Assembly (NCBI GenBank): GCA_963767735.1
Contig: CAVYES010000005.1
Location: forward strand, 96,001 to 160,000
Direction of reading: 5' to 3'
DNA length: 64,000 nucleotides
DNA from: Candidatus Bathyarchaeota archaeon
GTDB lineage: Archaea > Thermoproteota > Bathyarchaeia > Bathyarchaeales > Bathycorpusculaceae
In this document: positions 9,893 to 40,794 of the stretch, one piece after another
Position numbering within the stretch: the stretch's first letter is position 1
Layout of the letters: each line of letters begins with the position of its first letter
Made by a program: the position numbers and the translations under genes
Notes under the pieces: generated by a model
Database searches by the model: none
Seen by the model: only the letters and a program-made list of their open reading frames with translations
Told to the model about the DNA's origin: nothing

Positions 9893-9913
9893 GTTTGGGT
9901 CTGAGACCCAGCG
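9893..9913. repeat. 21-bp REP-like palindromic repeat, copy 2
   Basis: Identical to 7549-7569. Confidence 0.8.
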
Positions 9914-9962
9914 AACTCACCAGGTCTTGGACTTGGGTAAAGACTGAAATCTTCGTTTTAAG

Positions 9963-10000
9963 CAAAAGGGACTCAGACCATTTTGGGGTAAGCCCGGTTC
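9963..10000 (+). repeat. ~38-bp imperfect direct repeat, copy 1
   Basis: caaaagggactcagaccattttggggtaagcccggttc; copy 2 at 11703-11741. Confidence 0.7.
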
Positions 10001-10144: not shown

Positions 10145-10175
10145 GCTTATATATCATTAACATGAATCAGGTTAA
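10145..10175 (+). promoter_or_regulatory. TATA+palindrome element, inverted copy at the 3' end of the ATPase gene
   Basis: gcttatatatcattaacatgaatcaggttaa; 28/31 identical to the reverse complement of 11471-11501. Confidence 0.75.
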
Positions 10176-10178
10176 TCG

Positions 10179-11468
10179 TTATTTTATTTTTCCATAACGC
10201 TTTATTGCAGCATCTCCACGCATGGTCAGAGAATAATATGCTCGTTTTCCTTTTCCAACCCTGGTCACCCACCTCTTCTTCAATAATTCTCGAAGAACGC
10301 GAACAATAGACGATGCGTATTTGTCAAGTTGCCCACTCAAGTCGCTAGGCGTAAGTCTCCCTTTGCTTAGTTCTTTCATAATATCATATTCCAACTGAGT
10401 CGGGATTAAAGTCTCGGCTTGCTCTTCAAAAACGAGTTCAGGAGTTACTGTTGTTAAGCCTTTGTCAATAGCTTTTTGAATAGCTGCATATGTTCTTTCA
10501 AGCATCAAAAAGGTATTCGGCGCCGATACATTCATAATAGCTTTGATCGTCTCCGGAGGAATAATTGCTCTTATCACATCATTTGTCGTCTTTTCATTTT
10601 GGCATATTTGCGCGACTCCAAGGTATGCTCTGGAAAGAATAATATTTTCAGCATCTTCCATCTTGGTTACACCGTTATACATTTCAACTGAAGAAAATCG
10701 TTTAACAGACGAAGCTACCGTTTCTTTAATTGATTCACCAAAGGTATAAGTTAACGATATGATTCCCTGCTTGCCTTGAAACCATGCTTGATTTCCATCA
10801 AAAAAGTCCGAGAGAAGAGTATCGGAGTTAACTTTGTCAAGTTCATCAATTACAAATACAAGAAACGCCCCACTTTCTTCAAGATTTCTGATGAGAATGT
10901 CTACTGCATGCCTTGTATCGGTTTCAGTTGAAGCAAGAATTGATTCAATATCAGGTTTATGCAGTTGTTTAATAAGATATTTCATGCTTTTTTCAGCAGC
11001 ATCTGAAGCCAAACCTAACGGTGGAAAAGCTATGCCCAATGCCTGAGTCATTTTGCCTGCTACCCATGGAGCATATTTTTTAGTTGATTCGCTTAGTGTA
11101 TTTTCTCTTCCTTTGAACTGTGCGACATACAAAATTCCAGAGAGTACCGATCTATAAAAAACATCATTCAACTCTTTGATAGTTAAAGCTGTATTAGCAC
11201 CTTTAACTGTAACCGTAATCGGAATAATTGTGTCTTCTGCGTTCTCCTCTAAAGCTTGGTACAGAACTCCCTGCATGGCCGCTGTCTTTCCCACGCCTCT
11301 GGGTCCATATATTGAGGTGGTCCGTTTTTGGTTTATTATTTTAGGTGTTTGTTTCGCGGCGAAATCATCAAGATCTCGGTACAATAAACTAAACAGTTCA
11401 TCTTCATAAGATAGTAAATTTCTAGTCATGAATTGTTGTGCTGCAACAAGTTCTTTAGATTGTGGCAT
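10179..11468 (-). CDS. P-loop ATPase with C-terminal winged-helix (MarR/ArsR-like) domain
   Basis: Walker A GPRGVGKT, Walker B VFVIDELD, C-terminal LTPSDLS..IVRVL..YYSLT; likely start ATG 11468. Confidence 0.8.
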   Translation of the reverse strand: MPQSKELVAAQQFMTRNLLSYEDELFSLLYRDLDDFAAKQTPKIINQKRTTSIYGPRGVGKTAAMQGVLYQALEENAEDTIIPITVTVKGANTALTIKELNDVFYRSVLSGILYVAQFKGRENTLSESTKKYAPWVAGKMTQALGIAFPPLGLASDAAEKSMKYLIKQLHKPDIESILASTETDTRHAVDILIRNLEESGAFLVFVIDELDKVNSDTLLSDFFDGNQAWFQGKQGIISLTYTFGESIKETVASSVKRFSSVEMYNGVTKMEDAENIILSRAYLGVAQICQNEKTTNDVIRAIIPPETIKAIMNVSAPNTFLMLERTYAAIQKAIDKGLTTVTPELVFEEQAETLIPTQLEYDIMKELSKGRLTPSDLSGQLDKYASSIVRVLRELLKKRWVTRVGKGKRAYYSLTMRGDAAIKRYGKIK

Positions 11469-11470
11469 AG

Positions 11471-11501
11471 TTAACATGATTCATGTTAACAATATATAAG
11501 C
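11471..11501 (-). promoter_or_regulatory. Promoter (TTATATA) and perfect palindrome gttaacatga-w-tcatgttaac of the ATPase gene
   Basis: Directly upstream of ATG 11468 with leaderless-type spacing. Confidence 0.75.
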
Positions 11502-11741: not shown

Positions 11742-11827
11742 GGCCCACTTCCCGCGTAGAAATGCTTGCTGTTGACTGTTTTTGTTATTTTTTGCTACTT
11801 TAGCCATTTGTGGTTTGAACCCAACAC

Positions 11828-11852
11828 GGTTCAAATCCCGCCCGGTCCACCA
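11828..11852 (+). repeat. tRNA-Ala 3'-end fragment (att site copy 1)
   Basis: ggttcaaatcccgcccggtccacca: T-arm, acceptor 3' strand and CCA. Confidence 0.85.
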
Positions 11853-11954
11853 CTTGCATTAAATTTTGTGATGATTTTAATTCCTGTTCGTTCAGGAAGA
11901 GTTCACAGTTTCTGCAAAAGTCTTTATATTGATTATTCGTAAGGTTATTTGGAA

Positions 11955-12254
11955 ATGAAATCACTCGAAGAAATAAAGCGTAAGCTTGAGGCTTTGAATC
12001 CAATTCTGAAAAGGAATTTTTCAGTGGACGCTATCGAAATTTTCGGTTCTTATGTTAGGGGAGAGCAGACTGAAAAAAGTGATATAGATATTCTGGTAAC
12101 TTTCTCAGAGCCAAATGATGTAGATCTCTTCAAATTTATTGAACTGCGCCTTTTTCTTAAAGATGAACTGGACATAGATGTCGATTTGATTGAGAAAGAT
12201 ACACTTAAACCCCGCCTGAAAACACGAATACTTGAAGAGGCAATACCCGTTTGA
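11955..12254 (+). CDS. mntA: Minimal nucleotidyltransferase antitoxin (MntA-type)
   Basis: GSYVRGEQTEKSDID (GSx10DxD). Confidence 0.88.
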   Translation: MKSLEEIKRKLEALNPILKRNFSVDAIEIFGSYVRGEQTEKSDIDILVTFSEPNDVDLFKFIELRLFLKDELDIDVDLIEKDTLKPRLKTRILEEAIPV

Positions 12255-12589
12255 ACAAGGATTTCAAAGTCTATTTAGACGATATGATAAATGCCATTAA
12301 CGAAATAGAAAAATCCACTCAAGATGTCAGTTTTGAGGCTTTTGCAAGGAACTATGAAAAGATAAATTCTGTGGCATACGATGTTTTGATAATAGGCGAA
12401 GCAGTTGACAAAATTCCAAAATCGGTGCAGGAAAAAAATCCGCAAGTTCCTTGGCGTGTACTGAATGATATAAGGAACAAACATATTCATGAATATCGTA
12501 CAGTAAAACCTGACAAGCTTTGGAAAATGGCCAAGTTCAGCTTACCACGAGTAAAAACGCTATTAGAAAACATCCTAAAAACTATTTGA
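12251..12589 (+). CDS. hepT: HepT-like HEPN RNase toxin (DUF86)
   Basis: IIGEA..VPW..RNKHIHEY (Rx4HxY); overlaps mntA stop. Confidence 0.88.
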   Translation: MNKDFKVYLDDMINAINEIEKSTQDVSFEAFARNYEKINSVAYDVLIIGEAVDKIPKSVQEKNPQVPWRVLNDIRNKHIHEYRTVKPDKLWKMAKFSLPRVKTLLENILKTI

Positions 12590-12639: not shown

Positions 12640-12706
12640 ATCAGCCTGGGATAATCGCCGCGTTCGCAACGCGGAAGCCGCGGGTTCAAATCCCGCTCGG
12701 TCCACT
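12640..12706 (+). pseudogene. 5'-truncated tRNA-Ala(CGC); attL of the integrated element
   Basis: D-loop remnant, anticodon arm ccgcg-ttCGCaa-cgcgg, T-arm and acceptor 3' strand; first ~10 nt absent. Confidence 0.8.
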
Positions 12707-13619
12707 TTCACCCCCGCCCGCCTACCTTTTGAAACCCCACAAACCCTTGAAGTAGCACTATATCTAAAAAAGAAAAGTTTGGCAGAAGACACAATCGAGG
12801 GATATGTAAAAAGACTAAGATTTATCGCAAAAAACACTGACATAACCAAACCCGAAACAGTCAAAGAATTTATCTTAAATCAAACCACAAGCTCAGCACA
12901 CAAAGAAGCCTTAGCAAACGCCTATGCCCATTATATTCAATGTTATGGATTAAATTGGGAAAAACCATTTTTCCACAGAGAGGAAAGACTCCCAAACGTA
13001 CCCACAACAGAACAAGTGAATACAATTATCTCAGCCTTTAAGAAAAAATACGCCACTATCTTTAGCATCTTAAGAGACACAGGATTAAGACCTTGCGAAC
13101 TCCACAGACTAACATTAAAAATGATAAACTTAGAAAATGGGACAATCACCCCGCAAACAGCCAAAAATGGCGCACCAAGAATCTTGACACTCCCCGCCCC
13201 AACCTTAGCAATGCTAAAAGAATACATTACAAGACTAAACCCGAAAATGAACGAAAGATTTTTTCCAACTACAAGAAGAATGTGCCATATCTGGGTACAT
13301 GGAAGAAATCAAGTAGCAGAGAAGCTAAAACAATCAAACTTACAAATACCGACTATACGACTTAAGACATTACTTCGCAACCATGCTATATGCAAAAACC
13401 AAAGACATACTCTTAGTAAAACAACAACTCGGACACAAAAGAATCGAACACACCCTAATCTATACACACCTAATCAACTTCAAACAAGACGAATACATCT
13501 CAAGAACTGTCCAACTCGGAACACCAACAACATTAAAAGAAATATGCGAATTAGCCGAAGCAGGCTTCACCAAATTCACCGAAATAGACGGCTACCAAAT
13601 ATTCAAAAAACCAAAATAA
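12680..13619 (+). pseudogene. Tyrosine integrase, IntC fragment (SSV1-type), frameshifted near 13345
   Basis: Frame open through att (AGSNPARST); TGLRPCEL in frame 1; YDLRHYFAT..LGH..TLIY in the +1 frame. Confidence 0.85.
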
Positions 13620-13701
13620 AAACTAACATAACAAAACCTCAATTTTTTATTGTGAATTCTTCGCTCACTTACAGCCACCATGTAAATTTTCGAAAGCAAA
13701 C

Positions 13702-14373
13702 TTATTGTTTGAACATCTTATTCAAAATGGATGATTTAGGTCGGGGCTTAGGTTCGGTTTCTTTAGGTCGCAAACAGCCGTAAAGAAAATCGGGAACAGT
13801 TTCTTTGAATTTTGCGTTTATTTCAATATAACTTACATTAATCAAACTATCTTCTTCTTTTAAATCAAGTTTGGGTATGAATTTAGCTATTATAACGCCT
13901 TCTTTAATCGAAGGTTTCTTCAATAGATATCTGACTCTTTCTTCTGAAATATCCTCTGTTGAAATCAAAAAGGCAAAAGATGCATTGAAAATCTCTTTGT
14001 AAATCTTAACCTGTCCAAGCATCTTTAGAGTGATTGGTACATCTTTTATTTCTGCAATTATGATTTCTTTAGGACTCTGAGGATTCTTTTGAACGTAACC
14101 TATTAAATCGGGATAAATGCCTTCAATCCGTATTATGTTAAGAGTATCGTCGTCAAATACTTGTTTCAGTTTTTCGGAGAAGACGTTCTTGCCGCCTATT
14201 ATTTCTAAATAAACACGTTCAGGCTCGTTAATGCTTAATCCCCGTTGAGGGTGATAACCCTTTTCACGGTCAAGGTAATTGCCCATAATTATGCTCAAAC
14301 TTTTCTGGATTAACTCATAATACAGTGCTTCGTTCCTTTTCTTTTGTAGCTTAACGTTTGGTTTTGAAGTCAT
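13702..14373 (-). CDS. Putative PD-(D/E)xK nuclease
   Basis: YPDLIG..IIAEIK motif. Confidence 0.6.
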   Translation of the reverse strand: MTSKPNVKLQKKRNEALYYELIQKSLSIIMGNYLDREKGYHPQRGLSINEPERVYLEIIGGKNVFSEKLKQVFDDDTLNIIRIEGIYPDLIGYVQKNPQSPKEIIIAEIKDVPITLKMLGQVKIYKEIFNASFAFLISTEDISEERVRYLLKKPSIKEGVIIAKFIPKLDLKEEDSLINVSYIEINAKFKETVPDFLYGCLRPKETEPKPRPKSSILNKMFKQ

Positions 14374-14483
14374 TGCTAAACCCTTTCTAACTCGTTATCA
14401 AGCGTATATTAGGATTTCACTTTTTACTCTTTGTATGGAATTATGCAGAATAGCCAAAGACAGCCAAACCAAACTATTTTATA

Positions 14484-15008
14484 TTGAAAGCAATGAATAC
14501 AGGACTGGGTATAATTATGCCTCTTGAGGAAGACCTTCAACTACTAACCTTAGCGAAACTCAAGCTCTTAGCGAAAAATAATGGGGTTTCGCTGGAAAAA
14601 CCCTCTTACACGTTTGGTAAGAAGGCATACACTCCAACTAAAAAATCAGATATAATCGTAGCTCTTCTTAAATCTTCCAAGATTACAACTAAGAAGATTA
14701 AGGAAATATCTGAACCCGTTTCTAAAGAGAAGAGTGGAAAACGAAAACCAATACCAAAAGCGGTACGTGAACAGGTTTGGGACAAATATATGAAGGCAAC
14801 AGAGAGAGTCGGAAAATGTTACTGTTGCGGATGGCGACCTATCACGGATAGTGATTTTGAAGTTGGTCATAATAAGGCAGTAGCCAAAGGTGGAAGAGAC
14901 CACATTAACAATTTGAGACCTATATGTAAATCATGTAATCGTTCTATGGGCACGATGTCTATTGAGGTCTATAAAAGAAAATATCATCCGACCAATGCAA
15001 AAAACTAA
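14484..15008 (+). CDS. HNH endonuclease with N-terminal SAP/Rho-N-like helix pair
   Basis: CYCC..EVGH..KGG..NNLRPICKSCNRSMG. Confidence 0.85.
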   Translation: MKAMNTGLGIIMPLEEDLQLLTLAKLKLLAKNNGVSLEKPSYTFGKKAYTPTKKSDIIVALLKSSKITTKKIKEISEPVSKEKSGKRKPIPKAVREQVWDKYMKATERVGKCYCCGWRPITDSDFEVGHNKAVAKGGRDHINNLRPICKSCNRSMGTMSIEVYKRKYHPTNAKN

Positions 15009-15096
15009 AACGAAACAGGTTAAAGACTAAAGGGTGGGTGTCTAAACGTGGAAGTGCTAAATAGCAAGAATCTTGAGCAAATAGAAGAGAGAACAA

Positions 15097-15534
15097 ATGA
15101 AACGCATCATATTAGTTGACGGAAACAATTACATCTACTTTACGAGCCTTCGAATGAAAAATTCTGACTTCGGTAATATACTTGTGACTACAAAGGAAGA
15201 ATCAAAGGCAATAGAATATTATCTAATTACAGCGTGGGAATTGATTCAAAAATTTGAGAAAGGATGGTTAGACTTAGTATCGGAACATTGTTCAAAAGGA
15301 GAGTCGCCATTTCAGGACACAGTTGATTTAACAGGAATAGTCACAGTGATGTCAGAAAAGGAAATAATTGAACTTGCTAAAAAAATAAAACAAAATCCAA
15401 GAGATACAAATGAAATTATCAATCAAACTATTGGTGAAATAAAGCAGAAAAAACGTCTATTGAAACAACAGCCACTACAACAACCACTACAAAATCAACT
15501 ACCAAAAAAAAGTTTTTGGAAAAGATTAACCTGA
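15097..15534 (+). CDS. Hypothetical protein
   Basis: 145-codon ORF ending KKSFWKRL; no motif recognised. Confidence 0.5.
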   Translation: MKRIILVDGNNYIYFTSLRMKNSDFGNILVTTKEESKAIEYYLITAWELIQKFEKGWLDLVSEHCSKGESPFQDTVDLTGIVTVMSEKEIIELAKKIKQNPRDTNEIINQTIGEIKQKKRLLKQQPLQQPLQNQLPKKSFWKRLT

Positions 15535-15752
15535 AAAGAAGGAAAGTGAAACTGACAAAAATCAATTTTTCATTTGATTGAATAATTACTTAATTTTTGG
15601 ATAGCTTAGATTTCCAAAGTGAAAAGTTTTGTTACCTGAAAACTAACACTATTGGAGGCGTCGCTTGCGCTTCGCGCTCGCTCCGCTATTGCCATACAAA
15701 ACGCAAAAGCCAAACGATATGCAAACCGCAAAAAGTTTTCTTTTAAGATAAG

Positions 15753-16940
15753 TTACCAATCATATTGGTGCTTTTTTAAATCAGGCGCAAGAAGCCAAAC
15801 GCATTCTCCATTCTCATAGAGAGAAGCCCAAAAATTAGTTTTATAATCGCTCTTCATAGGATTATGCTGAAAAACTTCAAACCCAAAGTATCGAGCAGGC
15901 TCAAGCTCATGCTTACATAAAGGACAAAGTAACTTGCGGGATTCATAGGTTATATGTAAACGCCTATAACTTAGCGAACCGAACCAGACAAACCCTCGTG
16001 CACGACTCTTAATAATAGAAGCGGAAATACTCATTTACCGTGCCCCCTTCCTAATCGCCATATGCGATAATTGATACCAAGCCGTGGCAAAAACAGACCT
16101 ACGCTCATCAGTCACCTTAATGATGTAGTGGTGCTTTTCGAAGCTCTGCCTTACTCGATTCTCGAAACCGTCACATGAAGCACAAAAACGGCTGTCACCA
16201 TGTTTCTTAACAATCTTGCCCCCACCTGTACGATAAACCTTCTCAGTCTCAGAGCAATGTCGGCACTTCCCATAACCGCCCTCAATAAAACCGAGAATAT
16301 GCATATGTGGAGACCAATAAAACCCGTATGGAACACCTTTCTCTAACGACTCAGAATAATCAGCGAACCTAAAGCCGTGGAAACAAAAACCACCATTAAT
16401 AATCCCTACCTCAGCAACTATCAAGCGCCACTTTTTGCACCATTTTTCATGCTCAAACTCAGCCAAAAAATAATCAGACTGAGGCGCAGAAACAATAATG
16501 TGCTGAGGCTCACCCAACGGTGCATGATAAATATCCTTATCATCCTTCCCGCCCACAGAAGCCTTCTCAACACGCTGAGAAATATGCTCAGCCTCGCGTA
16601 AACAAGCGCCTTTTAAATAACAGATAGGACAGGCATAAGAATGGCACCAAGTATGGACCATATGAACATAGACCTCTCCACCATGACTTACACCTAAAAG
16701 GTCAGCTTGAGAGTGCAATTCGACTCGGTTACAAATATCGTGCCTTCTCCATTGACCACAATTACTGTTAGTCTTCTCGCCATGACCGACAACAATCCAG
16801 TCGCCATGCTCAAAATGGAAGATACGTGAATTTCCCATATCTTCATTCAATTGCTCGTAAGCCGAATAGTCACGCCACTTAGCCTCAATATCCTCATATT
16901 TGGGAAAATAGGCATCACGACTCAATATCTTTACCCCCAA
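15753..16940 (-). CDS. HUH rolling-circle Rep (SNJ1 RepA-like), interrupted by an in-frame TAA at 16035-16037
   Basis: Zn-binding C..CPIC, HIIVSAP, FHGFR, WSPHMH (HUH), WYQLSH; same-frame continuation WFGSLSY..CPLC. Confidence 0.75.
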
Positions 16941-17034
16941 ACTTCTCAGCTTGTCGCATGTGAATCATCGATAAGCTCTTAAGGCTAAATCTTACATAAA
17001 CAGTAAAGTAAGTGTACCAATTCGGAAACCCAAA

Positions 17035-17535
17035 ATGAAAGAACAAATTGACGATAACAAAATTCAAAAAGAAATAGACGCTATCTTTACCAATTACCAT
17101 AAAAAAATTAAGGAAAAAAAAGCCAATTATCGTAATAACTTAGACGACAAATACTGCAAAAAAATATACGACAAACTTCTTGCAGAAGCCGCATTAAAAA
17201 AACAAATTATTCGCCCAAAATTTAGACACAACGAAATATACAACCTAGTAAAAAACGAAATGTCAAAAACAACCTTTGAATCGCATCTCGAACACCTAGG
17301 GCAAAAAAGATTCATAGCCAAAAGAAGCAAGACAAAATACAATACATCCTATCAGATTAACGTTTCAAACGAACCTAAAGTAATCCAATTACGAAGAACA
17401 ATCTTAGGCAAGCAAAAATTAGAATTAGTTGGCATTACAAAACTAAAAAAAGGAGTTTTTTATTTGCCTCCAAACCTTAAACTTGCACCTGCATCGGACA
17501 TACCACCAAACGAAAGATTATTTTACAAAGATTAG
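17035..17535 (+). CDS. Winged-helix protein divergent from rep
   Basis: FRHNEIY..MSKTTFESHLEHL..NTSYQI. Confidence 0.6.
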   Translation: MKEQIDDNKIQKEIDAIFTNYHKKIKEKKANYRNNLDDKYCKKIYDKLLAEAALKKQIIRPKFRHNEIYNLVKNEMSKTTFESHLEHLGQKRFIAKRSKTKYNTSYQINVSNEPKVIQLRRTILGKQKLELVGITKLKKGVFYLPPNLKLAPASDIPPNERLFYKD

Positions 17536-17809
17536 ATTGAAGCAATCCACGGAATTCTAAGCAGACGCTTTTTTATAAAAAGCTTGGCAAAAAAGAATTA
17601 CTCTATGTCTGCACAAGAGTAATCAGAAAGCCCGTTTTGGCGCCCAAGACCCAAAAAATCAACACCCAACAACAGACACCGAACGGTAAAGCAAAAACAC
17701 CTCAGGTAGCGAGTACACCTCCCTAAAGGGCAGCCCCCCTCGCACCCAAGGACTCTGTTTTTGCGCTACAAAAAACTTTTAATGAAAAATAGACCACATA
17801 ACAAGCTGT

Positions 17810-18661
17810 ATGTCACATTCAGATTTTCAGATGCGGAAACATGAGCTTGAGAAATTGTCAAGTCTGTTTAAAAGCAAAGGTTATGCCACAACTGCCAAAG
17901 AAATTGAATCTTTTATTGAACTCTTGAAGCATCCATTCGAACTCTCAGATTTTCTAAAGAAACTGGAAGCCCTATTAAATATGTTCGAAACAGAATTCGT
18001 ATCTGGTTTTCCAATAGGGCAACAATTTCGAAAAGATAACTATGAACAAACAAAGAAACTCATATTCGAAGCTATAAATAGACTCGGAGTTGATTTTTCT
18101 AAATCTCAAAGTTCGATTCTTCCCTTAATTGAAAGAGTTGGAAAAGCAAAAATGACGTATGGCTTCATAGCTGATGAACTACATAAACAAACAATAAAAA
18201 ATGAAAATGTTATCTTTCATCTTTATTGTTATTCTTATTTAATTTTTGTAGAAGGAATATTTGATGAACTGTCTCGAATTCTTTACTTTTTTGATAAAGT
18301 ATCACCAACCAACAAACCGACGACTGAAGACTTGGAGAGATTGTCTGTTCAACACATAGCTGAACACTGTAGAATGAAGATGATTGTTTTTCAAAACTGG
18401 GCTGATAAAAAACATATACGAAATTCCATAGGACATGCTCTCGCTCAATTCGATTCTTCCAAAAAAATGGTGCGTTTTATTGACCGTGACCCTCAGACTG
18501 GAAAAATAACTTATGATAGCGGTGTTATCCCTTTCCAGAAATTTATGGAAATGGCGCTCGAACTTGAGGATTCTTTGAGTAGTTTTACATACATCTTAGT
18601 GTTGTTGAAAATATTTGACTTCGTTATTTCCTCAAATCCAATGGGTAAATCAAAAGAGTAG
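17810..18661 (+). CDS. Putative HEPN-domain protein
   Basis: Helical protein with IRNSIGH (Rx4H) motif. Confidence 0.55.
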   Translation: MSHSDFQMRKHELEKLSSLFKSKGYATTAKEIESFIELLKHPFELSDFLKKLEALLNMFETEFVSGFPIGQQFRKDNYEQTKKLIFEAINRLGVDFSKSQSSILPLIERVGKAKMTYGFIADELHKQTIKNENVIFHLYCYSYLIFVEGIFDELSRILYFFDKVSPTNKPTTEDLERLSVQHIAEHCRMKMIVFQNWADKKHIRNSIGHALAQFDSSKKMVRFIDRDPQTGKITYDSGVIPFQKFMEMALELEDSLSSFTYILVLLKIFDFVISSNPMGKSKE

Positions 18662-18676
18662 GATACGCTAAAAGCA

Positions 18677-19057
18677 CAGAAGTAACTCTTGTATCGTGCA
18701 AAAGCGCCAGTATAAAGCTTATAACTAGAGAGTAACAATAACAATACAGGGATTAAAATGAGTAAACAACCAAACCCCAAGAAATTAGATAGGCTAATTG
18801 AGGCAGAAGTAACTCTTGTATCGTGCAAAAGCGCCAGTATAAAGCTTATAACTAGAGAGTAACAATAACAATACAGGGATTAAAATGAGTAAACAACCAA
18901 ACCCCAAGAAATTAGATAGGCTAATTGAGGCAGAAGTAACTCTTGTATCGTGCAAAAGCGCCAGTATAAAGCTTATAACTAGAGAGTAACAATAACAATA
19001 CAGGGATTAAAATGAGTAAACAACCAAACCCCAAGAAATTAGATAGGCTAATTGAGG
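18677..19057 (+). repeat. Three exact tandem copies of a 127-bp promoter+IntN unit
   Basis: Copies start at 18677, 18804 and 18931. Confidence 0.95.
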
Positions 19058-19083
19058 CGGGTTCAAATCCCGCCCGATTCACT
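19012..19083 (+). CDS. IntN fragment of the split integrase
   Basis: MSKQPNPKKLDRLIE-AGSNPAR reads into attR in the same frame as IntC; TATA and agggat upstream. Confidence 0.75.
19057..19083 (+). repeat. tRNA-Ala 3'-end fragment (attR)
   Basis: gcgggttcaaatcccgcccgattcact. Confidence 0.85.
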
Positions 19084-19193
19084 TCAGCCATAGAAATGGT
19101 TTCTGTAGAGTGTTTTTCCCGAGTTTTTCTTCTCCCGGATTAAACCAAGTCCTGTTTTCAGGACATTAATGATTCAGTTGACAGAGGCCTAAT

Positions 19194-19646
19194 ATGTCGT
19201 CAAACCCAAGTTTCACTTCGCTTTCTGAAGTGGTTACTCACCTAAATGCTACAGGACCCGATAGCAACAGCAATTATCAAGTCTACGGGCTCACGGTCTC
19301 AAGTAATAGCGTTCAAGCCTACGTTGATCACGCGAACACTTACATAGGCAGTCTAGTGCCCAGTGTAACATCTACGGATCCGCGTTACCCGTTTGCGCAG
19401 TTAGCCGCTTTGGATCTTTCGTGCATGAGCGTTTTAGTTGCTGCAAGCGGCGGGATGCTTTTGGGTGCAGCAGATTACAAGCTTGGCGATTTATTCGTAA
19501 CTAAAGCCACTATCGGAAAATTCGCATTTCAAAGCGCAGTGCAAAGCTTCCAAGACAGTTTTACCCGAAATATAGTGAATCTTTCAACTGTAGCCGTAGG
19601 CGCTCAAGCACGCCTGGGATATGAAGTTCCTCGGAGGAAATCTTAG
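19194..19646 (+). CDS. Head-tail connector/adaptor-like virion protein
   Basis: FTSLSEV..VQAYVDHANTYI pattern of gp6/gp15-like adaptors; first gene of the tail cluster. Confidence 0.55.
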   Translation: MSSNPSFTSLSEVVTHLNATGPDSNSNYQVYGLTVSSNSVQAYVDHANTYIGSLVPSVTSTDPRYPFAQLAALDLSCMSVLVAASGGMLLGAADYKLGDLFVTKATIGKFAFQSAVQSFQDSFTRNIVNLSTVAVGAQARLGYEVPRRKS

Positions 19647-20084
19647 ATGTCAACGAATCAGGCTTTAGCGGTTTCGGAGTTGCTGCAGGAGAATTGGGGG
19701 CTATCAAGTCCGGTGGCTGCCGCGAATATTTTGTGGCCTACGACGCGTATGGATGCGATTGGGATTACTCAGGGAAAAGGATCCTTGCAAGTGGCTGTCT
19801 ATAACGCGAGTCCTAGCAAGCAAGTGGACGCGCTTAGCCGCGAATGTTACCTGGTTACCGAAAAACTTGTGGTCGACATAATTGTTGTTAACGCCAGTCA
19901 AAGCTCCGCTGATTTAGCGGCTGCAGAATCCACTTTGGAGGCCTTGCAGACTGAGGTTAATCGCATCATACATTTGCAAGACCCAAACTACGTCGTAACC
20001 GGAGAGCCGATTCACAGCAACGCAACTGAAGTAACCCGCGTTATGATCAACGTTGACGCCGTTTACTTCAGCATTTCAAGCTAA
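19647..20084 (+). CDS. Tail completion/terminator-like protein
   Basis: Size, position and LVVDIIV..EVNRII pattern. Confidence 0.5.
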   Translation: MSTNQALAVSELLQENWGLSSPVAAANILWPTTRMDAIGITQGKGSLQVAVYNASPSKQVDALSRECYLVTEKLVVDIIVVNASQSSADLAAAESTLEALQTEVNRIIHLQDPNYVVTGEPIHSNATEVTRVMINVDAVYFSISS

Positions 20085-20359
20085 TAGGCAGATGAAGCAA
20101 ATGGCAGAACAAAAAAGGGCGGCAAACCAGAAGTTCAAAACTCGATTTAGCACTTGGATTGTGACTTACAAAAACGGTGCTCAGGTTCTTGTAGAGCATA
20201 GAGTAACAAAAATAGCTTAACGCTGCTTAAATATCGCTGGAATCTGTTAGTCCAGAAAACTGGACTCACCTTTATTTGTGTTATTCGGCGTGTCTACAAA
20301 CGAGGCATTAAATAGTTTAATGGATATGACATGGACAAGACAGCGGGTGTTGAGAGAAA

Positions 20360-21253
20360 GTGGAAGACGAAGGGCAAGTGGAGAATGATAGACAACGCGC
20401 AGAAGTCTTTGATGCACTCGGTCATCCTACCCGTATAGGAATCTTGAAGGCCTTAAGTGAAGGCCCTCTCGGCTTCGCTGAGCTAAAGAAGAAGACTTCA
20501 ATTGACAGCAGCGGACATCTTCAACATCACTTAATCAAACTAAATGGCCTGATAAAAACTGATGAATATGGCAAATATTGCCTCTCTGACCAAGGAAAAG
20601 ACGCCTTGTTAACCGTACGTACAGTGGAGAATGCAACCGATAAAAAGCCAATGTCACAGCAGAAGTCAATACACCACTTTAATTTTAAAGTAGGTTTAAA
20701 ACCAGTTGCTTTGCTGCTCGTGGCGCTCTTAATTGCCAGTTCAGCAGCCGCAGTATACGAGTATAATCAAGCAGGGTTTTTCCAAAGTAAACTTGCCCAT
20801 TCTTCGCAGATTAGCGATGGCTATTATTTACCCTATGAAGGCAACATTAGTAAAATATTTGTAGTTTCGACAAATTCAAGTTATGGATACTACCCAGTTA
20901 AAACCTACACTTATCTTAACGGAACGGAAGTTAAGGCAGGTGGACCTTGCGTTATAATTAGCGTCACCGTACGAAATGATTATTCGACAGAGTATCCACC
21001 GCCATATCCAGCCCCTGGCTCAACGGTAGCAGGGATTTACTTGATGGCTCAGTTATTTAGTGGCGAACAACAAATTAAGGCAACGGATTTATTATACAAC
21101 CCGCCCTTTTTCGGACCTGACATCGGTTCGAATGCATTTATTAATAGTGGAGAAAGTGCAACCATTACTTTGTATTTGGGAACAAACGCTACAAACGTAA
21201 CAAGTTACCAAATTGTGCCAACATGGATTTCGGGAACTCCGCCACCATTTTAG
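20360..21253 (+). CDS. ArsR-like wHTH + transmembrane helix + extracellular domain
   Basis: FDALGHPTRIGIL..LQHHL..YCLSDQG; hydrophobic VALLLVALLIASSAAAVY. Confidence 0.8.
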   Translation: MEDEGQVENDRQRAEVFDALGHPTRIGILKALSEGPLGFAELKKKTSIDSSGHLQHHLIKLNGLIKTDEYGKYCLSDQGKDALLTVRTVENATDKKPMSQQKSIHHFNFKVGLKPVALLLVALLIASSAAAVYEYNQAGFFQSKLAHSSQISDGYYLPYEGNISKIFVVSTNSSYGYYPVKTYTYLNGTEVKAGGPCVIISVTVRNDYSTEYPPPYPAPGSTVAGIYLMAQLFSGEQQIKATDLLYNPPFFGPDIGSNAFINSGESATITLYLGTNATNVTSYQIVPTWISGTPPPF

Positions 21254-21300
21254 GCGCATTTGATTAATTTTAATTTACAGTACTTTGCGTAAGAGGGATT

Positions 21301-21666
21301 TTGTTGAGTATTCAAATTTCAGTTAGCTTGCTAAATTTTGATGTGCTGAGCAATTGCTTTGAGTGTCTTTGTGAGCAGTACCCTGAGGCTGTTGGGCAAG
21401 CAATGCAGAATGTTGCCCAGAATATTTTGGCAACTGCAAACACGCTAGTTCCAGTCAGAACAGGTTATCTAAAAAGCACAATAGTAATTGAGCAGCCCGG
21501 CAAATTCCAACTTAAGATCAAGGCTACGGCGCCTTACGCCTATTATGTGGAGTTTGGCACCCGAAAGATGCCGGCGAGGCTTTTCTTAACGAATTCGGTT
21601 AATCAGCATATGCCCGAGTTTGGGCCTGCAATAGAAGAACAAATTCAAAATATCCTGCAAGGCTAA
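21301..21666 (+). CDS. HK97 gp10-family putative tail component
   Basis: VPVRTGYLKSTI..APYAYYVEFGTRKMPARLFL. Confidence 0.9.
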   Translation: MLSIQISVSLLNFDVLSNCFECLCEQYPEAVGQAMQNVAQNILATANTLVPVRTGYLKSTIVIEQPGKFQLKIKATAPYAYYVEFGTRKMPARLFLTNSVNQHMPEFGPAIEEQIQNILQG

Positions 21667-21759
21667 CATACACTCAATAGCCTCTAATCAGTATATACCC
21701 AACAGCTTCTAATCGTACCATAATTTTATCAGAATAATTGTTAATCGAGGTGAAAAAGT

Positions 21760-22182
21760 ATGAGTTTAGCAACTACGCCAGTTCTAAGTCGCAACGCAGT
21801 TGTTCAGGTGGGCGGAGCAGCAATCGGTTTTCTCACTGACTTCACTATGGATGTCAAAGCAGAGATGATTAAGGAGTATGTTTGTGCGTCAGGCGGGTCT
21901 CCGTCGCCAGCTTTCACGGCAAGCGGCAACCAATCCTACACGTTTAAAGCTTCAGCGCTCTATGTTCCAGCAAACTATGCAGCATTACTTACAGATGTTC
22001 TAAACGGCACTTTGGTGACGGTTATTTGGGGTCCACAGGGCACAACTACAGGGTCGGGAACACCAAAAATCACGCTAAGCAACGTTGTCTTAACAGCTTA
22101 CAGCGTAAAAAATGGTCAGAAAGGCACCATTGCCAATGATATCAGTGGTGAAGCGCAAAGTGTGGCCACAAGCACATTCTAG
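21760..22182 (+). CDS. Major tail tube protein
   Basis: Beta-rich 140 aa, RBS gaggtg, T-rich terminator after stop, precedes chaperone and TMP. Confidence 0.75.
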   Translation: MSLATTPVLSRNAVVQVGGAAIGFLTDFTMDVKAEMIKEYVCASGGSPSPAFTASGNQSYTFKASALYVPANYAALLTDVLNGTLVTVIWGPQGTTTGSGTPKITLSNVVLTAYSVKNGQKGTIANDISGEAQSVATSTF

Positions 22183-22212
22183 TGCTTTTCTTTCTTTTTT
22201 CAGTTGCCATAG

Positions 22213-22515
22213 TTAAGGGAGATGAGGAGGATATTTTCTTTTAGCCGCCCAATCGACAAGGACAATTCCCAAAATTAAAATCGTTGAATCGATAAGAATT
22301 CCAGATTGTAGAATAAGGTTAGGAACTGCATTTACGTCCCGCAAGAAGAAAAGCAATAACGCTGTGGGAATAAGTGTGGCAGCCAATAAGAGCCTCGATT
22401 TTATTCTGAAATTCAGAATTCCATGAGAACGAGCTTCCTCAGCTGCGACCAAACAGGTGACCTCAGGAACACATTTTAATTTTCCCACTAAAAAAGGTTC
22501 GCCAGCTATTATCAT
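22213..22515 (-). CDS. Small two-TM membrane protein (possible moron, antisense to tail operon)
   Basis: Two hydrophobic segments; N-terminus uncertain. Confidence 0.35.
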   Translation of the reverse strand: MIIAGEPFLVGKLKCVPEVTCLVAAEEARSHGILNFRIKSRLLLAATLIPTALLLFFLRDVNAVPNLILQSGILIDSTILILGIVLVDWAAKRKYPPHLP

Positions 22516-22563
22516 GCTGAGTTAACAGCATTTTGTGGCATTAATTGATATTAATGAGGTGAT

Positions 22564-23102
22564 TTGATGAGTGAAGAAAAATTTGATAGTGAAGGTTTCG
22601 AGAAGCTTAAAGCAGCGTTCAACGAGTATGAGGCAGAGCAGAAAGAGCGTTTCAAAAATTTTAGCGTAGGCCTGCTTAAGAGTAGTAAGGTTCCGCAGGA
22701 GGCTAATGTGTCCGGCGCCGGCTGGGTCAAATTCGTTTTGCTTACCCATAATGAGCTTAGCGATTTAGCGAAGTTTTACAAGGATGATCAACGCGAATTC
22801 GAACTGCAAGCTCTTCTAAAGATGATGAAGCCCTGCTACCCAGACTTAACAGAGAAGGACCTGCGAGATGCACCTTGGGATTTGGTGCGTGCCCTGGAGA
22901 AGGCGTTGCTTAATGAGGGTTTTTTACCGCGAACAGTGAGGCGGTCAATGACTGGATTTACTGGAGCAGTGAAGCCCAGCGCATCGCAGCCGTCATCAAC
23001 CTCTACCACTACACCCTAGAATACGCGGCAAGCCTAACCAATTTCCAACTGGAATTCTTAATCCAATCTGCAATTTGGTATCGCAAGTTGTCAGAAGGCT
23101 AA
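22564..23102 (+). CDS. Tail assembly chaperone pair (gpG-like 22564-23019; gpGT-like via -1 frameshift to 23102)
   Basis: Slippery T TTT TTA at 22920-22926; -1 frame open for 58 codons (..EYAASLTNFQLEFL..); lies between tail tube and TMP. Confidence 0.85.
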
Positions 23103-23383
23103 AAACAAGGTGAGTGGCGCTGTCTTTTCCCGAAATTGCCTATTGAAAGATTATTGAGATTGCTTTATCAGGTCCTCGTCTATTTTCGGCTTCCTCTTAA
23201 TCTAGAAATCACCGAATGCTAAAGAAATCTATCCTTTTTTGAAGTGGTTCGCTCCCTGATGCTATCTACGAAAGCGCAGTATATTCCCTGGGTATAAATC
23301 ATTTGGTTGGTGAGAGTATGATAAATAATTGATAAAATTCTCAATCAAGTAGGCTTAAATTATCAACAGTCTAAATGTTTTAA

Positions 23384-23955
23384 ATGGTTAGAATGGAAAC
23401 TGACTACTCATTCCTCCATAAGATCCTGAAGGACTCAACTAGGCGAGACATCTTGCGATATCTTAACGATCGGCCTCTGTCTTACATGGAACTGATGAAT
23501 CTTTCAAAAATCACAAACACTGGAAAGCTCAACTATCACCTGAAAGTTCTCGGCGAGCTAATTCAGAAAACGGCTGATGATAAGTATAGTTTAACTGACA
23601 GGGACGTCTTGCCGTCCAATTGCTTGAGAAGTTCCCTTCAAAGCCAATTCAGGGAAAACCCGTTTTATCTCACGGACCCGTGATTATGTTGTCCCCAGAA
23701 TGGAAAAGGGAATTTGGTCTTATGACATTTATGATAGCTTCTTTCCTTGGAGGAATTTACTTGTTGTTTTTCAGTGTGCTTTTCTTGGAGCGCCCTTGGC
23801 CTCACGGTCCTATTTCTTTAACAAGCGCGGCAGGCATAATCGTCGCTATGGGTCTCATTATTCTATCTTTGCCAATTCGTAAAAGGTATCTGGCTGTCAA
23901 AGAAAGAAATAAACAAACGCTAATCTCCTATCGAGCTGATGACCCAACCCATTGA
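23384..23955 (+). pseudogene. ArsR-like wHTH + two TM helices, frameshifted near 23602
   Basis: LKDSTRRDIL..GKLNYHLKVL..YSLTDR then GRLAVQLLEKFP in another frame. Confidence 0.75.
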
Positions 23956-24115
23956 ACCTTCTAAAAGGTCCAAATTGCTCGTATTCGTATGTTGATTCAT
24001 GGCGCTTCTTTTTACCGATATTATGTGTTGAAGTAAGTCGTGAAACTGGTTTGAATTTTCATCCAGTGTTTTGAGCGCGAGCGCTAAAAAATTGTTTCAG
24101 AAGGGTAAAAACGAA

Positions 24116-25501
24116 ATGAGTGGAGCTCCTGCAGAAATAGATATTGTTGCGACTGATGATGCTTCGGATGTTTTCCAAGATGTCAGCAGCAACTTTAGCG
24201 ATATGAGTAGCAATGTCAGCGAAGCCTCTGACTCAATGAGCACCGACGTTTCAGATAGCATGCAACAAACCTCCAGCTCCGTTTCAACTATGACGACAAC
24301 GGTGCAGGCTGATACTAGCCAAATGCAGGATTCCTTCAATCAAGCCGGAAGCACTGCACAGGTAAGCATGAATCAAATAACCACCAGCACAGGCGAAGCA
24401 AGCGATGCCACTGAAGCGTCTAGTCAGAGCTTTAGCCAAAACGCAATGCAGATGAATAGTGCAGCGATGAGCGGTGCCATGCTGTATATGGCTGTAAATA
24501 ACATAGAGAACGCGCAAACATCGCTTGCTAGAGCTAACTTGACTGAGGAAAAAGCAGCTAATTCCGTTACTTTAGCGCAGCAAGCCTATAATGTGGCTGT
24601 TGCGAAGTACGGTGAAACCAGCGTTCAGGCACAAGATGCAGCAAATCAGCTCAATTTAGCGATTGAAACTCAGCAAGTGGATCAGGAACGGGTTGCTGAA
24701 GCAAGTCGAAACTATAACAGTACCTTGATGATGTCGGCGCTTACGGTTATTCCTGCAGTTATCAATGTTATGACTTTGGCGAGTCATGCAACTCAAATGT
24801 GGGAAGGCGCCCAAGCGGCTCTTGATGTTGTTATGGATGCTAACCCGATTGGTTTAGTTGTAATCGCTATCGCTGCCTTGGTGGCGGCTGTCATTGCTGC
24901 ATACACGTATTGCAAGCCTTTTCGCGATGTAATCAACGATATAGGCAGCATAATTGGCGGATCGGTTCTTTCAGCATTTAACGCTTTAAAGTCTGCAGGA
25001 GACGCATTATGGAGCGGTCTTAGCTGGGCTTACAGTAACATTTTGTTGCCGGTAGCTAACTTTTTCAAAGAAGTTTTAGTTGCCGACTTGAATGTTGCAT
25101 TAGTGCCTGTTAAAGCTTTTGAGACAGCCATTGGCGCCGTCGCTAATGCAGTGAAGCCCTTGAGCGATTTAATCGGGGGATTAGGCTCAGCTCTTAGTCA
25201 TCTGTGTTTTGCTCATGCAGCGCCTGCAGCGGAAGAATTCAACAAACAAGTTACCCAAAGCATAGCGCTCAGCGACCAGTTAACGCATAAAACTAACACG
25301 CTTGGCTCATCGCTTCAAGGCTTGGCAGGCAACGTATCAGTAAAAGGCGGAAGCGGCACAAGCAACATAACAATCGGCTCACCCAACATCACAATCGGCA
25401 ACATTACAGGGACTGCTTCGCTCAAGCAAACACGAGACGCGGTCAACAAGGGGATTTGCGATGCGATGTACAAGAAAGGCATAATGAACAAGGTGACATG
25501 A
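24116..25501 (+). CDS. Tape measure protein (461 aa from ATG 24116)
   Basis: IDIVATDDAS N-terminus, MDANPIGLVVIAIAALVAA..FRD motif, Ala/Ser-rich helical body. Confidence 0.9.
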   Translation: MSGAPAEIDIVATDDASDVFQDVSSNFSDMSSNVSEASDSMSTDVSDSMQQTSSSVSTMTTTVQADTSQMQDSFNQAGSTAQVSMNQITTSTGEASDATEASSQSFSQNAMQMNSAAMSGAMLYMAVNNIENAQTSLARANLTEEKAANSVTLAQQAYNVAVAKYGETSVQAQDAANQLNLAIETQQVDQERVAEASRNYNSTLMMSALTVIPAVINVMTLASHATQMWEGAQAALDVVMDANPIGLVVIAIAALVAAVIAAYTYCKPFRDVINDIGSIIGGSVLSAFNALKSAGDALWSGLSWAYSNILLPVANFFKEVLVADLNVALVPVKAFETAIGAVANAVKPLSDLIGGLGSALSHLCFAHAAPAAEEFNKQVTQSIALSDQLTHKTNTLGSSLQGLAGNVSVKGGSGTSNITIGSPNITIGNITGTASLKQTRDAVNKGICDAMYKKGIMNKVT

Positions 25502-25896
25502 TGAGCTGGCAAATAACCCAAGGATCCACAACAATTACGCTGCCGTATGCACCTCAGACCAACACAGATGAATCTCCAACTATTGATGATTCTTCGATTA
25601 ATGTTCCTGAGCAGGGGACTACTCTTGTTTCCGTCTGCAACGATGTACGCACCTTAACGATGGAAGGATTTTTCTACATAGCAGGATCAACAAAAAGTGC
25701 GATTGACTCAACATACATTGTTCCCTTGCTCGGAATGCTTCACTTATTAGTTACGTTAACGACCCCAAGACCCAGCCTCAACGCCACATGGAAATTTGAC
25801 AAAGCAACCTTCACCGAAACAAAAGATTACTCAAACCAACCCGCAATCAAATTTACGCTCGTCTTCAAGTTTGCAGCAAACTACGTGGTGCTATAG
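25498..25896 (+). CDS. Distal tail (Dit)-like protein
   Basis: Directly follows TMP; RTLTMEG..FTLVF pattern. Confidence 0.6.
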   Translation: MMSWQITQGSTTITLPYAPQTNTDESPTIDDSSINVPEQGTTLVSVCNDVRTLTMEGFFYIAGSTKSAIDSTYIVPLLGMLHLLVTLTTPRPSLNATWKFDKATFTETKDYSNQPAIKFTLVFKFAANYVVL

Positions 25897-25898
25897 CA

Positions 25899-27923: not shown

Positions 27924-27936
27924 GAGAAAAAACAAA

Positions 27937-28668
27937 TTGTCAAGTGTAATTAGAGGCCAGCAGGGCGGCTCGACCGGAAATGCTGTTGAAGGCGGAGGCT
28001 TCTGCTTTGCATCAACAACTTACTCCGAGGGTTGTAGTAAAGGTCCGCTTGACGCAGCCCTTCTTGAAAATGGCACTAACATAACTGAAGGGTGCACTAC
28101 GGGTCCACTTGACCTTGGATTTCTTGACAATGGCATTAACGCGGAGTGCGGAAATGATTCAGGACCAAGTCGTTCTGATGCTCCTTCTTTTCCCACAACA
28201 GGCACATATGGAAACACCAGCACTGGAGCAAGCTACACTCCCTGCATAAACGACATTGTTGGAAGCGTCTTTACAACTCCAACTGTATCGGGCGCGATGC
28301 ATGTAACTGGAATCCACGCGCTTGTTCAATGCGACACGGCTAACAAAACCTTCAACGCTGCAATTTACACGGCTGCAGGCGCTTTAGTTGGCCAATGCAA
28401 CCCGGTAACCGTTTCTTACTCTGCCAATCCACAGATGGCTATGTTTACTCCAACAAACGCGATACAACTTGCATCTAACACAGCCTACATCTTAGTTGTT
28501 TGGTGTAGCAGCGCCTCAGGAAATGGCGGTCTTTACTATATTGCTGGAAGCACAAATCAAGGCTACACTTACGCTTCAACATACTCATCTACTTTTACAA
28601 GTAGCCTCGGAACAATCACTTTCAACAATAATTCTTACTGTGTTTACGCTGACTACTACGTGTTTTAG
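27937..28668 (+). CDS. Putative receptor-binding/minor tail protein
   Basis: Thr/Ser/Gly-rich beta protein, internal 19-aa repeat EGCxxGPLD, LASNTAYILVV. Confidence 0.5.
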   Translation: MSSVIRGQQGGSTGNAVEGGGFCFASTTYSEGCSKGPLDAALLENGTNITEGCTTGPLDLGFLDNGINAECGNDSGPSRSDAPSFPTTGTYGNTSTGASYTPCINDIVGSVFTTPTVSGAMHVTGIHALVQCDTANKTFNAAIYTAAGALVGQCNPVTVSYSANPQMAMFTPTNAIQLASNTAYILVVWCSSASGNGGLYYIAGSTNQGYTYASTYSSTFTSSLGTITFNNNSYCVYADYYVF

Positions 28669-28687
28669 AGGGGGTGAATAAGACAAA

Positions 28688-29380
28688 ATGTTGACTTTTT
28701 ATCAAAACTTGAAATCTCAAATAGCTAAAAAATACAGAAATCACTTGATGCTTCAATGGTGGGCTGTTAAGCAACTTCTAAAAGGAAAACTGCGACTACG
28801 AAACACTTTCGGCGATGAAATAAGAATCAAGGATGAGATCACATGTTGGCAAGGCGATAAAATTCAGTTCCGAACTAAAGGCCACATCGTTTCTCAAGGA
28901 TTAATTTGCATGGTGAATTGGATTTCTTGGGGTGGTAACGGTGTTGCCGTCGCGGAATACGGATTAATGGCAAATGCAGGTTCGGGTTGGTATATTCGAT
29001 GCGGAACTGGCACAGGCGCTACGGCGCAATCAACAACTGGGTTAGTGACGGCAATCTCGACAGCTCCAAACACGTTGAGCGGAACAAACAGTAACCCAAG
29101 CGCTGGACAATACCGCATTGCATGGACAGCGACGTGGAACTCAGGCACTCTCTCTGCAATCACCATCACAGAGTTTGGGATGTGGTGGAACAACGGTTTC
29201 GGAGCTTCTGGAGCTATGGGTTTGAATGGATTTGGCAACACCGGTTACGCTAACCAAAGCGGTTCAAACCCGGAATTTACTTCGCGCATAAGCAGTACAG
29301 ACGGAGACTTTTCCAGCTTCACCGTGAATACTTCTGTTCCTTTGACTCTTCAGTGGAACTTAACGTTCACTTTCGCTTAG
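28688..29380 (+). CDS. Tail-collar fibre-like structural protein
   Basis: YIRCGTGTGA..TATW..ITEFGM..LTLQWNLTF pattern. Confidence 0.55.
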   Translation: MLTFYQNLKSQIAKKYRNHLMLQWWAVKQLLKGKLRLRNTFGDEIRIKDEITCWQGDKIQFRTKGHIVSQGLICMVNWISWGGNGVAVAEYGLMANAGSGWYIRCGTGTGATAQSTTGLVTAISTAPNTLSGTNSNPSAGQYRIAWTATWNSGTLSAITITEFGMWWNNGFGASGAMGLNGFGNTGYANQSGSNPEFTSRISSTDGDFSSFTVNTSVPLTLQWNLTFTFA

Positions 29381-38593: not shown

Positions 38594-38864
38594 ACTTTAG
38601 ACTACTGCCTAATGCAAATTATCGTAAAGACGACAGGAGAATTAATTCTTAGCGGAGCTTCGTTGCTTAGGACTTATTCACTCAAATTGAGACATATTAG
38701 TGCTTACTTGATTGAGTTAATGGCAATAAATGGCTTCAAATAAAAATTGAAGCGTGAATTTAGCAGTTTCACTTTCACTCACCCCTCCCCTATCACACAC
38801 ATCAGTTTCTCCCTGTCTTTTAAATAGTAAAAAACATCATTGCGTTGGTCACACGTGAAAAAAT

Positions 38865-40133: not shown

Positions 40134-40243
40134 ATCAAGCTGTTGGTTCATTTATGCGGGGTACGAGCGTAAAAAAGCTGGCTGCTTAAGAGACATCCTG
40201 ACTTGTAACGCCTGCTCTTGAGATTTTTGGCTCAAAGTGGCTG

Positions 40244-40648: not shown

Positions 40649-40655
40649 GATTTGA

Positions 40656-40740: not shown

Positions 40741-40794
40741 AATAAACGCTTAAGTGGAACCCCTTTTATTATGCTATTATTAATAGGTGATTAA

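Follow-up and report, generated by a model that had tools for sequence, protein, structure and literature searches.

Suicidal integrases, which carry the attachment (att) site inside their gene and are split on integration into two parts, IntN and IntC, are tied in the accessible part of PMC8371274 to the Pfam family PF16795 and to one origin, and are listed there for Sulfolobales, Thermococcales, Archaeoglobales and a few others; the word 'Bathyarchaeota' occurs 0 times in the main text of that paper. The available portion of Krupovic (2019; PMC6563490) reports one split SSV1-like integrase in Thaumarchaeota, and that of Badel (2020; PMC7253208), on the pT26-2 family, documents changes of frame at att, switches of target and hybrid genes, tandem integration rebuilding an intact gene being given as not observed. 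Bathyarchaeia integrases are mentioned in PMC10848311, PMC11705971 and PMC11529989, with no split in the parts of these papers that were accessible. In the open-access literature (subscription journals lay outside the scope of the search), no description was found of the integrase family considered here. We analyzed a stretch of 64,000 nucleotides from a Bathyarchaeota genome (the window, C5:96001–160000; the genome has 3.04 Mb in 10 contigs), which holds an integrated element of about 6.4 kb (12680–19073) flanked by two copies of the 17-bp T-arm of tRNA-Ala(CGC). We conclude that it is a real but dead copy of a self-splitting-integrase element, with a mechanism already known in kind and an integrase of a different family. 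Our explanation as a whole, to which we assign a probability of about 0.8, is that the element is plasmid-like, of the rolling-circle type, and belongs to a Bathyarchaeia family with attP inside a tyrosine integrase gene that is separate from the SSV clade.

The two att copies, attL and attR, share 17 identical bases (12680–12696 and 19057–19073) and 25 of 28 bases overall, and lie 6377 bases apart. The identical 17 bases coincide exactly with the T-arm of tRNA-Ala(CGC) (5-bp stem, 7-nt loop, 5-bp stem), and the attL core is translated as AGSNPA. Four matches to the T-arm pattern occur in the window against 0.13 expected, and none of 100 shuffles reached four. In attR (19057–19084) the core is intact, with two further changes in the acceptor-stem part. 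At the right end, IntN (19012–19056, an ATG plus 15 codons) begins at ATG 19012 as MSKQPNPKKLDRLIE and runs into attR as AGSNPAR from 19057, in the same frame as att and IntC. The TATA-like promoter box of the last IntN copy (18969–18982) is found at equal distance in 9 of the 9 elements shown. At the left end, IntC reads AGSNPARSTFTP..LAEDTIEGYVKRL from 12680, open through attL as far as a frame break. Its first frame (12680–13342) holds the disordered att segment, the core-binding domain and the first half of the catalytic domain, with the Arg of RDTG and the Lys of TAKNG; the second frame (13347–13619) holds YDLRH, LGH, the catalytic Tyr and the C-terminal hairpin. All of these features are on the plus strand.

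In the hidden Markov model search proposed by the initial annotation, both pieces of IntC matched PF00589 over the cut-off, as did 25 of 25 relatives. The catalytic K, R and Y are invariant, and the H is near-invariant, in 84 relatives. The predicted structure of a 96% identical protein (P0001) matched the folds of XerA, IntI4 and Tn1549 Int with Z of 18–19; the SSV1 integrase is absent among the PDB sequence and fold matches listed, an absence that would also fit an unlisted entry. The enzyme is a tyrosine recombinase by its catalytic R-K-(H/Y)xxR-H-Y set and by its fold. At about 13342–13346 the reading frame changes, the window being two bases short with respect to relatives L106 and L103, and P0001 has no frame break at this position. 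Three catalytic residues (second Arg, His and Tyr) are thereby out of frame, and the window copy is dead in cis, as had been proposed for a frameshift near 13345.

Relatives were gathered by a protein search (104 matches; 46 of 61 genomes; 56 loci), which returned Bathyarchaeia nearly throughout; six metagenome loci were added by means of the replication initiator (Rep), and others by means of IntN DNA. In close relatives the tRNA at attL is intact, and attR lies 2.5–7.6 kb away. In 19 of 20 elements, the window included, an open ATG lies 6–35 codons before attR in the frame of IntC, and in 16 of the 19 this distance is 14 to 16 codons. Such an ATG was found in the other two frames in 1 of 40 cases, and at random places in 18%. 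Counted were elements for which both att copies are present and the frame of IntC is known; left out were loci with no second att in the DNA examined, mini-elements lacking IntC (L143, L145, L147–L151), an 868-bp relic (L069), a tandem (L059) and L093, for which the IntC frame is not known. Where att is read in a different frame (L047, L068 and L052), the frame of IntN shifts along with it. IntN peptides near-identical to that of the window occur in L064, L103, L062, L031 and L105, and this IntN type is present in 14 of 120 genomes of the genus. In another relative, L055, IntN holds the anticodon arm of the target tRNA-Val, broken by about 35 bases (~16700–16770), a hint that IntN leaders can be built from older att copies.

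Both forms of the gene are found among database proteins. One 90% protein cluster contains the tRNA-prefixed P0261 together with the Met-started, joined P0052 and P0262, all with the same IntC start, and P0024 is a joined form with an IntN resembling those of L068 and L059. Thirty of 34 first-search proteins with the att motif fit the tRNA-prefix pattern (P0046, one of these, appears joined), and three of the remaining four appear joined. The proposal that att lies inside the gene, which is split on integration and rejoined on excision, is thus borne out, as far as sequences can tell, by the frames, the conserved promoter and the joined and split forms.

In the free circle, a TATA promoter and an ATG would be followed by 15 codons, by the 17-bp att, with the T-arm read as peptide, and by the recombinase. 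Recombination with tRNA-Ala(CGC) would bring the promoter and start to the right end, and the whole folded enzyme, without a start, to the left. The split would then be an on/off switch of integrase expression and not a cut between domains, expression and catalysis being what we infer from the anatomy, the frames, the presence of both forms in databases and the disorder of the first 25–40 residues in the model. In the model of P0001, residues 1–25 have a predicted local distance difference test score (pLDDT) below 50 and the fold starts with a helix at residue 42; because of this, IntN is predicted to supply a promoter and a start codon, not a domain. With the Rep module and the two 17-bp cores intact, the window copy could be excised by an incoming relative.

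The enzyme had been labeled SSV1-type, a label that holds in the sense of 'works like' and fails as a family name. A PF16795 (Phage_integr_3) match was obtained for 1 of 25 relatives, at E 0.021. A profile of the split family (A1) gave 0–5 bits for nine reference suicidal integrases (SSV1, SSV2, AGV1, APOV1, pT26-2, pGE2, TPV1, ApPV1 and pTN3) and 120–281 bits for 12 intact integrases of Bathyarchaeia with an N-terminal zinc ribbon; the reverse profile, of the reference suicidal integrases, gave at most 26 bits for the split family. BLASTP of P0001 returned no match at E 10 to any of the nine, and 24–37% identity over about 300 residues to the zinc-ribbon integrases. Identity to SSV-clade members falls short of the ~25–30% over 60% used as a criterion in PMC8371274. 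Three trees join the split clade and the zinc-ribbon clade as sisters (106 rows, support 99; 33 rows, 99/98; 31 rows, 99/99), and classical archaeal and bacterial integrases fall between the split clade and the SSV clade. The trees omit open reading frames (ORFs) shorter than 270 residues or without the catalytic end, and the 33- and 31-row trees are hand-picked subsets of the 106 plus added outgroups. Host XerA exceeded the NF040815 cut-off in 0 of 61 genomes; weak XerA matches served as outgroups, three in the 31-row tree and one in the 33-row tree. The zinc-ribbon genes look classical, being whole genes, 7 of 12 of them with a tRNA following the 3' end. On Pfam, profile scores and trees, the enzyme is judged not to be a member of the SSV/pTN3/pT26-2 clade. 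It would descend from, or be sister to, the intact zinc-ribbon integrases of Bathyarchaeia. We think it likely that the zinc-ribbon N-terminus was swapped for a short leader and att, so that the design would have arisen independently; the tree gives the relationship, and the direction of the change is our reading of it. The self-splitting design probably evolved more than once.

The same genome holds a second split-integrase element (L171, C6:582014–587420; 5381 bp) at a tRNA-Arg; its IntC is open, its IntN has 26 codons, and att is read in a different frame. The tree places the enzyme among the zinc-ribbon integrases (99/98). Possibly, this is a further origin of the split design; the approximately unbiased (AU) test leaves the alternative, that it joins the split clade, unrejected (p 0.15).

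Promoter and IntN of the window form three perfect copies of a 127-bp unit (18677–19058, plus strand; 100% identical), each of which stops two bases into the att core. This is the sole 100%-identical tandem with a period of at least 60 in the genome. A sister element, L104/L105, of ~80% likeness to that of the window, carries a perfect 138-bp tandem of promoter and IntN of its own, with a different left end; it ends on the same base as that of the window. In L127, a complete IntN is fused to non-att DNA at that same att base, and in the elements listed the identity between attL and attR begins at, or just before, the next base. The shared end base may be the point of top-strand exchange by the integrase, occasionally used on a poor site, to judge from these junctions; a cut at the edge of the T-loop disagrees with it. 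A plus-strand junction at this base in L031 lacks promoter and ATG and was left uncounted. We give about even odds to the tandem being a by-product of the integrase, which would have linked the left arm of att with a poor site on a sister copy, 127 bp upstream, with expansion afterwards. Combining these parts, we lean slightly towards the view that the self-splitting of integrases has at least two, perhaps three, origins in archaea; that a large Bathyarchaeia lineage came from zinc-ribbon integrases by trading the N-terminal domain for a 15-codon leader and att that act as a promoter/start switch; that it moves from target to target, be it a tRNA, another RNA gene or the end of a protein gene; and that loose, one-sided strand transfer amplifies promoter and IntN in tandem.

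Several rival explanations were weighed. IntC could be a stand-alone gene starting at TTG 12779, with IntN a chance ORF; ORF finders do pick this start, as in P0002, and many database entries begin inside IntC. The codon is not conserved as a start, however (among 25 aligned proteins, it is Tyr 15 times, Leu seven times, Lys twice and Met once), and starting there would drop the first helix of the core-binding domain. The initial annotation had considered that homologs might start at TTG 12779 with a promoter of their own and no IntN; instead, relatives carry an in-frame IntN, and the frame concordance together with the joined forms refutes the stand-alone gene, to which we give practically no chance. 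It is also very improbable that a long-read assembly error produced the frameshift, leaving the integrase still rebuildable. A short A run adjoins the site and other relatives (L064) have probable indel errors, but two short contigs from two samples span it (X1, 13272–13475; X2, 13267–13478) and equal the window base for base, with 0 differences and no gap, in agreement with the indel check that had been suggested; X1 and X2 belong to one study, possibly the source of the genome. The same frameshifted protein, P0002, was moreover recorded from a separate contig of 42 kb, that of the window having 593 kb. For the 127-bp repeat, an assembly artefact or ordinary replication slippage without a role of the integrase has a better standing, the copies being identical, no examined contig spanning them, and the unit being single in 13 of 14 genomes of the genus. 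Still, the independent 138-bp tandem, with the same end base in att and another left end, and a junction with one base only of microhomology, make it a rather unlikely explanation.

As to descent, the enzyme could be a true member of the SSV1/pTN3/pT26-2 clade that diverged beyond recognition. It has the same split design and a tRNA 3'-half as target; the suicidal integrases are traced to a single event in the accessible text of Badel (2021; PMC8371274), and real PF16795 integrases do exist in Bathyarchaeia, 58 of the 301 genomes of this class having genes over the cut-off (E 1e-20 to 1e-37). Against this, PF16795 and the reciprocal profiles fail to link the groups, and the AU test rejects a single suicidal clade (p 8.7e-5 with LG, 0.0023 with the C20 mixture). 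The att sites differ as well: the one considered here is the T-arm in sense orientation, at codon 16, and those of SSV2, pT26-2, pGE2 and TPV1 are antisense, at codons 37–92; in SSV1, att is at 63 codons. We therefore hold membership in that clade to be highly doubtful. Somewhat less improbable, and still unlikely, is a split design ancestral to both groups and lost by the classical integrases between them (zinc-ribbon group, pHA1, pNOB8 and bacterial enzymes), that is, one origin and many reversions. The trees have no root, or one set by few outgroups, and the C6 integrase, lying among zinc-ribbon enzymes and allowed by the AU test to join the split clade, might be a case of retention; but losses would be required in the bacterial and phage integrases between the groups, and att orientation and position differ between the two. 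We favor a separate origin of the Bathyarchaeia family over both accounts.

Several observations weigh against our explanation. The 20 elements of the frame count are kin, so that the count overstates their independence; an ATG in frame is missing from L051, and in L047 two frames have one. The joined forms are known as proteins only and may stem from tandem arrays, not circles. The attP junction, which the initial annotation proposed to look for in reads, was not seen for the window element in contigs of four public runs (depth ~2–3, patchy cover), a weak negative. The intact host tRNA-Ala(CGC) lies on another contig, of which a simple integration model gives no account. The proteins in the trees are very distant, the alignment has about 300 columns, branches are long and the root is unsure, and just 3 to 8 classical outgroups are included; under the mixture model the support for the split clade alone is 87/93 (31-row tree). 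A single zinc-ribbon gene (contig C4) was seen whole in a repeat-bounded element, and for most others just a tRNA was seen on the 3' side. As for the tandem, it is found in 1 of the 14 genus genomes with this IntN type, no read spans it, the IntN remnant of L031 breaks elsewhere, and the pattern used for the junction search is blind to breaks further left.

The left site is not the ordinary attL that had been assumed. It lies in a remnant of tRNA-Ala(CGC) (12640–12705, plus strand) without its first ten bases, which over 66 bp is 92% identical to the intact copy of the gene, on contig C2, and differs from it in the D-loop. ARAGORN called no tRNA gene at 12640–12705, and a search for the missing 5' half across the contig and the genome turned up the intact C2 gene only. 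Because the left att is inside a truncated tRNA-Ala, the element occupies a relic site. The tRNA is intact at attL in close relatives (L031, L040, L042, L044, L046, L064, L103, L105 and L146), suggesting that the remnant in the window arose by later decay or is an ectopic copy. Another 3' end of a tRNA-Ala, with CCA (11825–11852), lies at 11810–11852, with an inverted T-arm copy before it; it is probably the att of another element type. Similar sites are found 300 bases behind attR in L064 and also in L152.

Between its ends, the element encodes a putative rolling-circle Rep in two ORFs on the minus strand. The product of repN (16035–16940) had no Pfam or PHROG match; its first match in the ESM Atlas scored 0.96, in a cluster with PF01446 (Rep_1) in 36% of members, and another cluster matched has it in 85%. 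Homologues are present in sister elements. We take its PHMH and YQLSH motifs to be the HUH and catalytic Tyr motifs of a rolling-circle Rep. repC (15753–16034) encodes the C-terminal, Cys-pair part, with its own ATG right after the repN stop. This stop-ATG, which follows an 11-codon duplication, was found in 8 of 8 close relatives, and Rep is contiguous in 18 of 18 distant relatives examined; on this sequence pattern, we regard the split as a conserved fission. Decay of Rep was rejected, the stop being the same in all eight close relatives. A bulge-helix-bulge intron was also rejected: the 33 inserted bases fold differently in three elements, and the variation is codon-like, with 3/5/7 variable columns by codon position.

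Cargo genes lie on both sides of the Rep module. An ORF of 223 residues (13702–14373, minus strand), without a Pfam, PHROG or PADLOC match, is a candidate nuclease by its PD..D/E-x-K pattern, presumably a nuclease motif. It is followed on the plus strand by an HNH endonuclease (14484–15008; PF01844, E 8e-8; PHROGs) and by a 145-residue ORF without a family in Pfam or PHROG (15097–15534). Beyond repN lie a 166-residue ORF (17035–17535, plus strand), divergent from rep, common to L064 and L060 and probably a regulator, and a 283-residue ORF (17810–18661, plus strand) without a family in Pfam, PHROG or PADLOC. Two non-coding stretches are candidate parts of an origin, one directly behind repC (15657–15726), with 85–87% identity in distant sister elements, the other at 17689–17763, with 92–95% identity in L064 and L104/L105.

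Among the relatives, the targets vary. In L079, L082 and L086 (~9900–10000), att, with its repeat, is the 3' end of a protein gene, presumably that of transcription factor S/RpoM; IntN is in frame in L082 and L086, and L079 is a tandem. In L061, L070, L072, L074 and L154, an att of 20–27 bp lies in non-tRNA sequence and the leaders are IntN-like. L065, L071, L075, L076, L009, L089 and L015 have an antisense tRNA (Gly, Pro or Arg) right before IntC, and no att repeat was found in the DNA of these loci that was examined. Mini-elements of 1.0–2.8 kb at tRNA-Ala(CGC) (L143, L145 and L147–L151) retain both att copies and IntN, with IntC and Rep gone; possibly, they are satellites or cargo cassettes. 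L059 and L079 are tandem integrations, and the joined gene is out of frame in L059, which agrees with the model of Badel (2020) for stable cases. In the viral collection, seven loci matched, all distant (26–38%) and mostly of the zinc-ribbon type, with none for Rep or for the IntN pattern; the plasmid and phage collections gave just distant integrases, below 33%.

The element has diverse neighbors. The tail module of a head-tail provirus (connector, HK97-gp10, tail tube and tape measure), without head genes, occupies 19194–29380 and starts 120 bases behind attR; part copies of 78–92% identity, on C4, C6, C7 and C8, have host-like genes inserted among the structural genes. On the other side, a nucleotidyltransferase-HEPN toxin-antitoxin pair (11949–12589), with four paralogous pairs in the genome, lies right before the tRNA remnant. 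At 10145–11501, a gene for an ATPase with a winged helix-turn-helix (10179–11477, minus strand) is enclosed by 31-bp inverted repeats, 90% complementary; no other copy of this unit was found in the genome. Finally, a 4.6-kb block (38814–43432) that encodes a RadA-like protein and a long tyrosine integrase is 88–89% identical to the first 4.6 kb of C5 and C6.

A second split lineage with living classical sisters in the same genomes would make the origin of the design testable, and comparing the split and classical states may tell what is gained by tying integrase expression to excision. Its separate origin would contradict the single origin of suicidal integrases published in the accessible part of PMC8371274. 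The family would be a common, undescribed class of small rolling-circle elements in Bathyarchaeia, a group without genetics, for which it is a possible source of integrating vectors.

Compared with known systems, the element resembles the thaumarchaeal cryptic integrated elements with a rolling-circle Rep (PMC6563490, accessible part) in its small size, integrase, replication initiator, regulator and nuclease cargo; of these, NitEve-E3 combines MCM with a split SSV1-like integrase, whereas the window element has a putative HUH Rep in two ORFs. With the intact zinc-ribbon integrases of Bathyarchaeia, several copies of which are present in this genome, the enzyme shares the identity noted above, the C-terminal hairpin and PF00589 as the only family; those enzymes, in contrast, keep the CxxCG N-terminal extension and are whole in the chromosome, mostly with a tRNA behind the 3' end. 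By taxa and Pfam, they probably correspond to fam30-28 (56 members; PMC8371274), which, in the at least 30 of 56 rows of the supplement that were accessible, is mostly from Bathyarchaeota, has PF00589 only and is not called suicidal. The closest likeness in design is to the SSV-type suicidal integrases (SSV1, SSV2, pT26-2, TPV1 and pTN3; PF16795; PMC8371274, PMC7253208), with which the family of the window shares an att inside the gene, a tRNA target, IntN and IntC at opposite ends after insertion, translation of att into peptide and, among relatives, different reading frames of att and switches of target. It differs from them in the lack of PF16795, in forming a separate clade by the AU test, in a sense T-arm att, identical over 17 bp and placed at codon 16, in an IntN that would consist of promoter, start and disordered tail only, in its Bathyarchaeia hosts, and in that some relatives are at non-tRNA genes.

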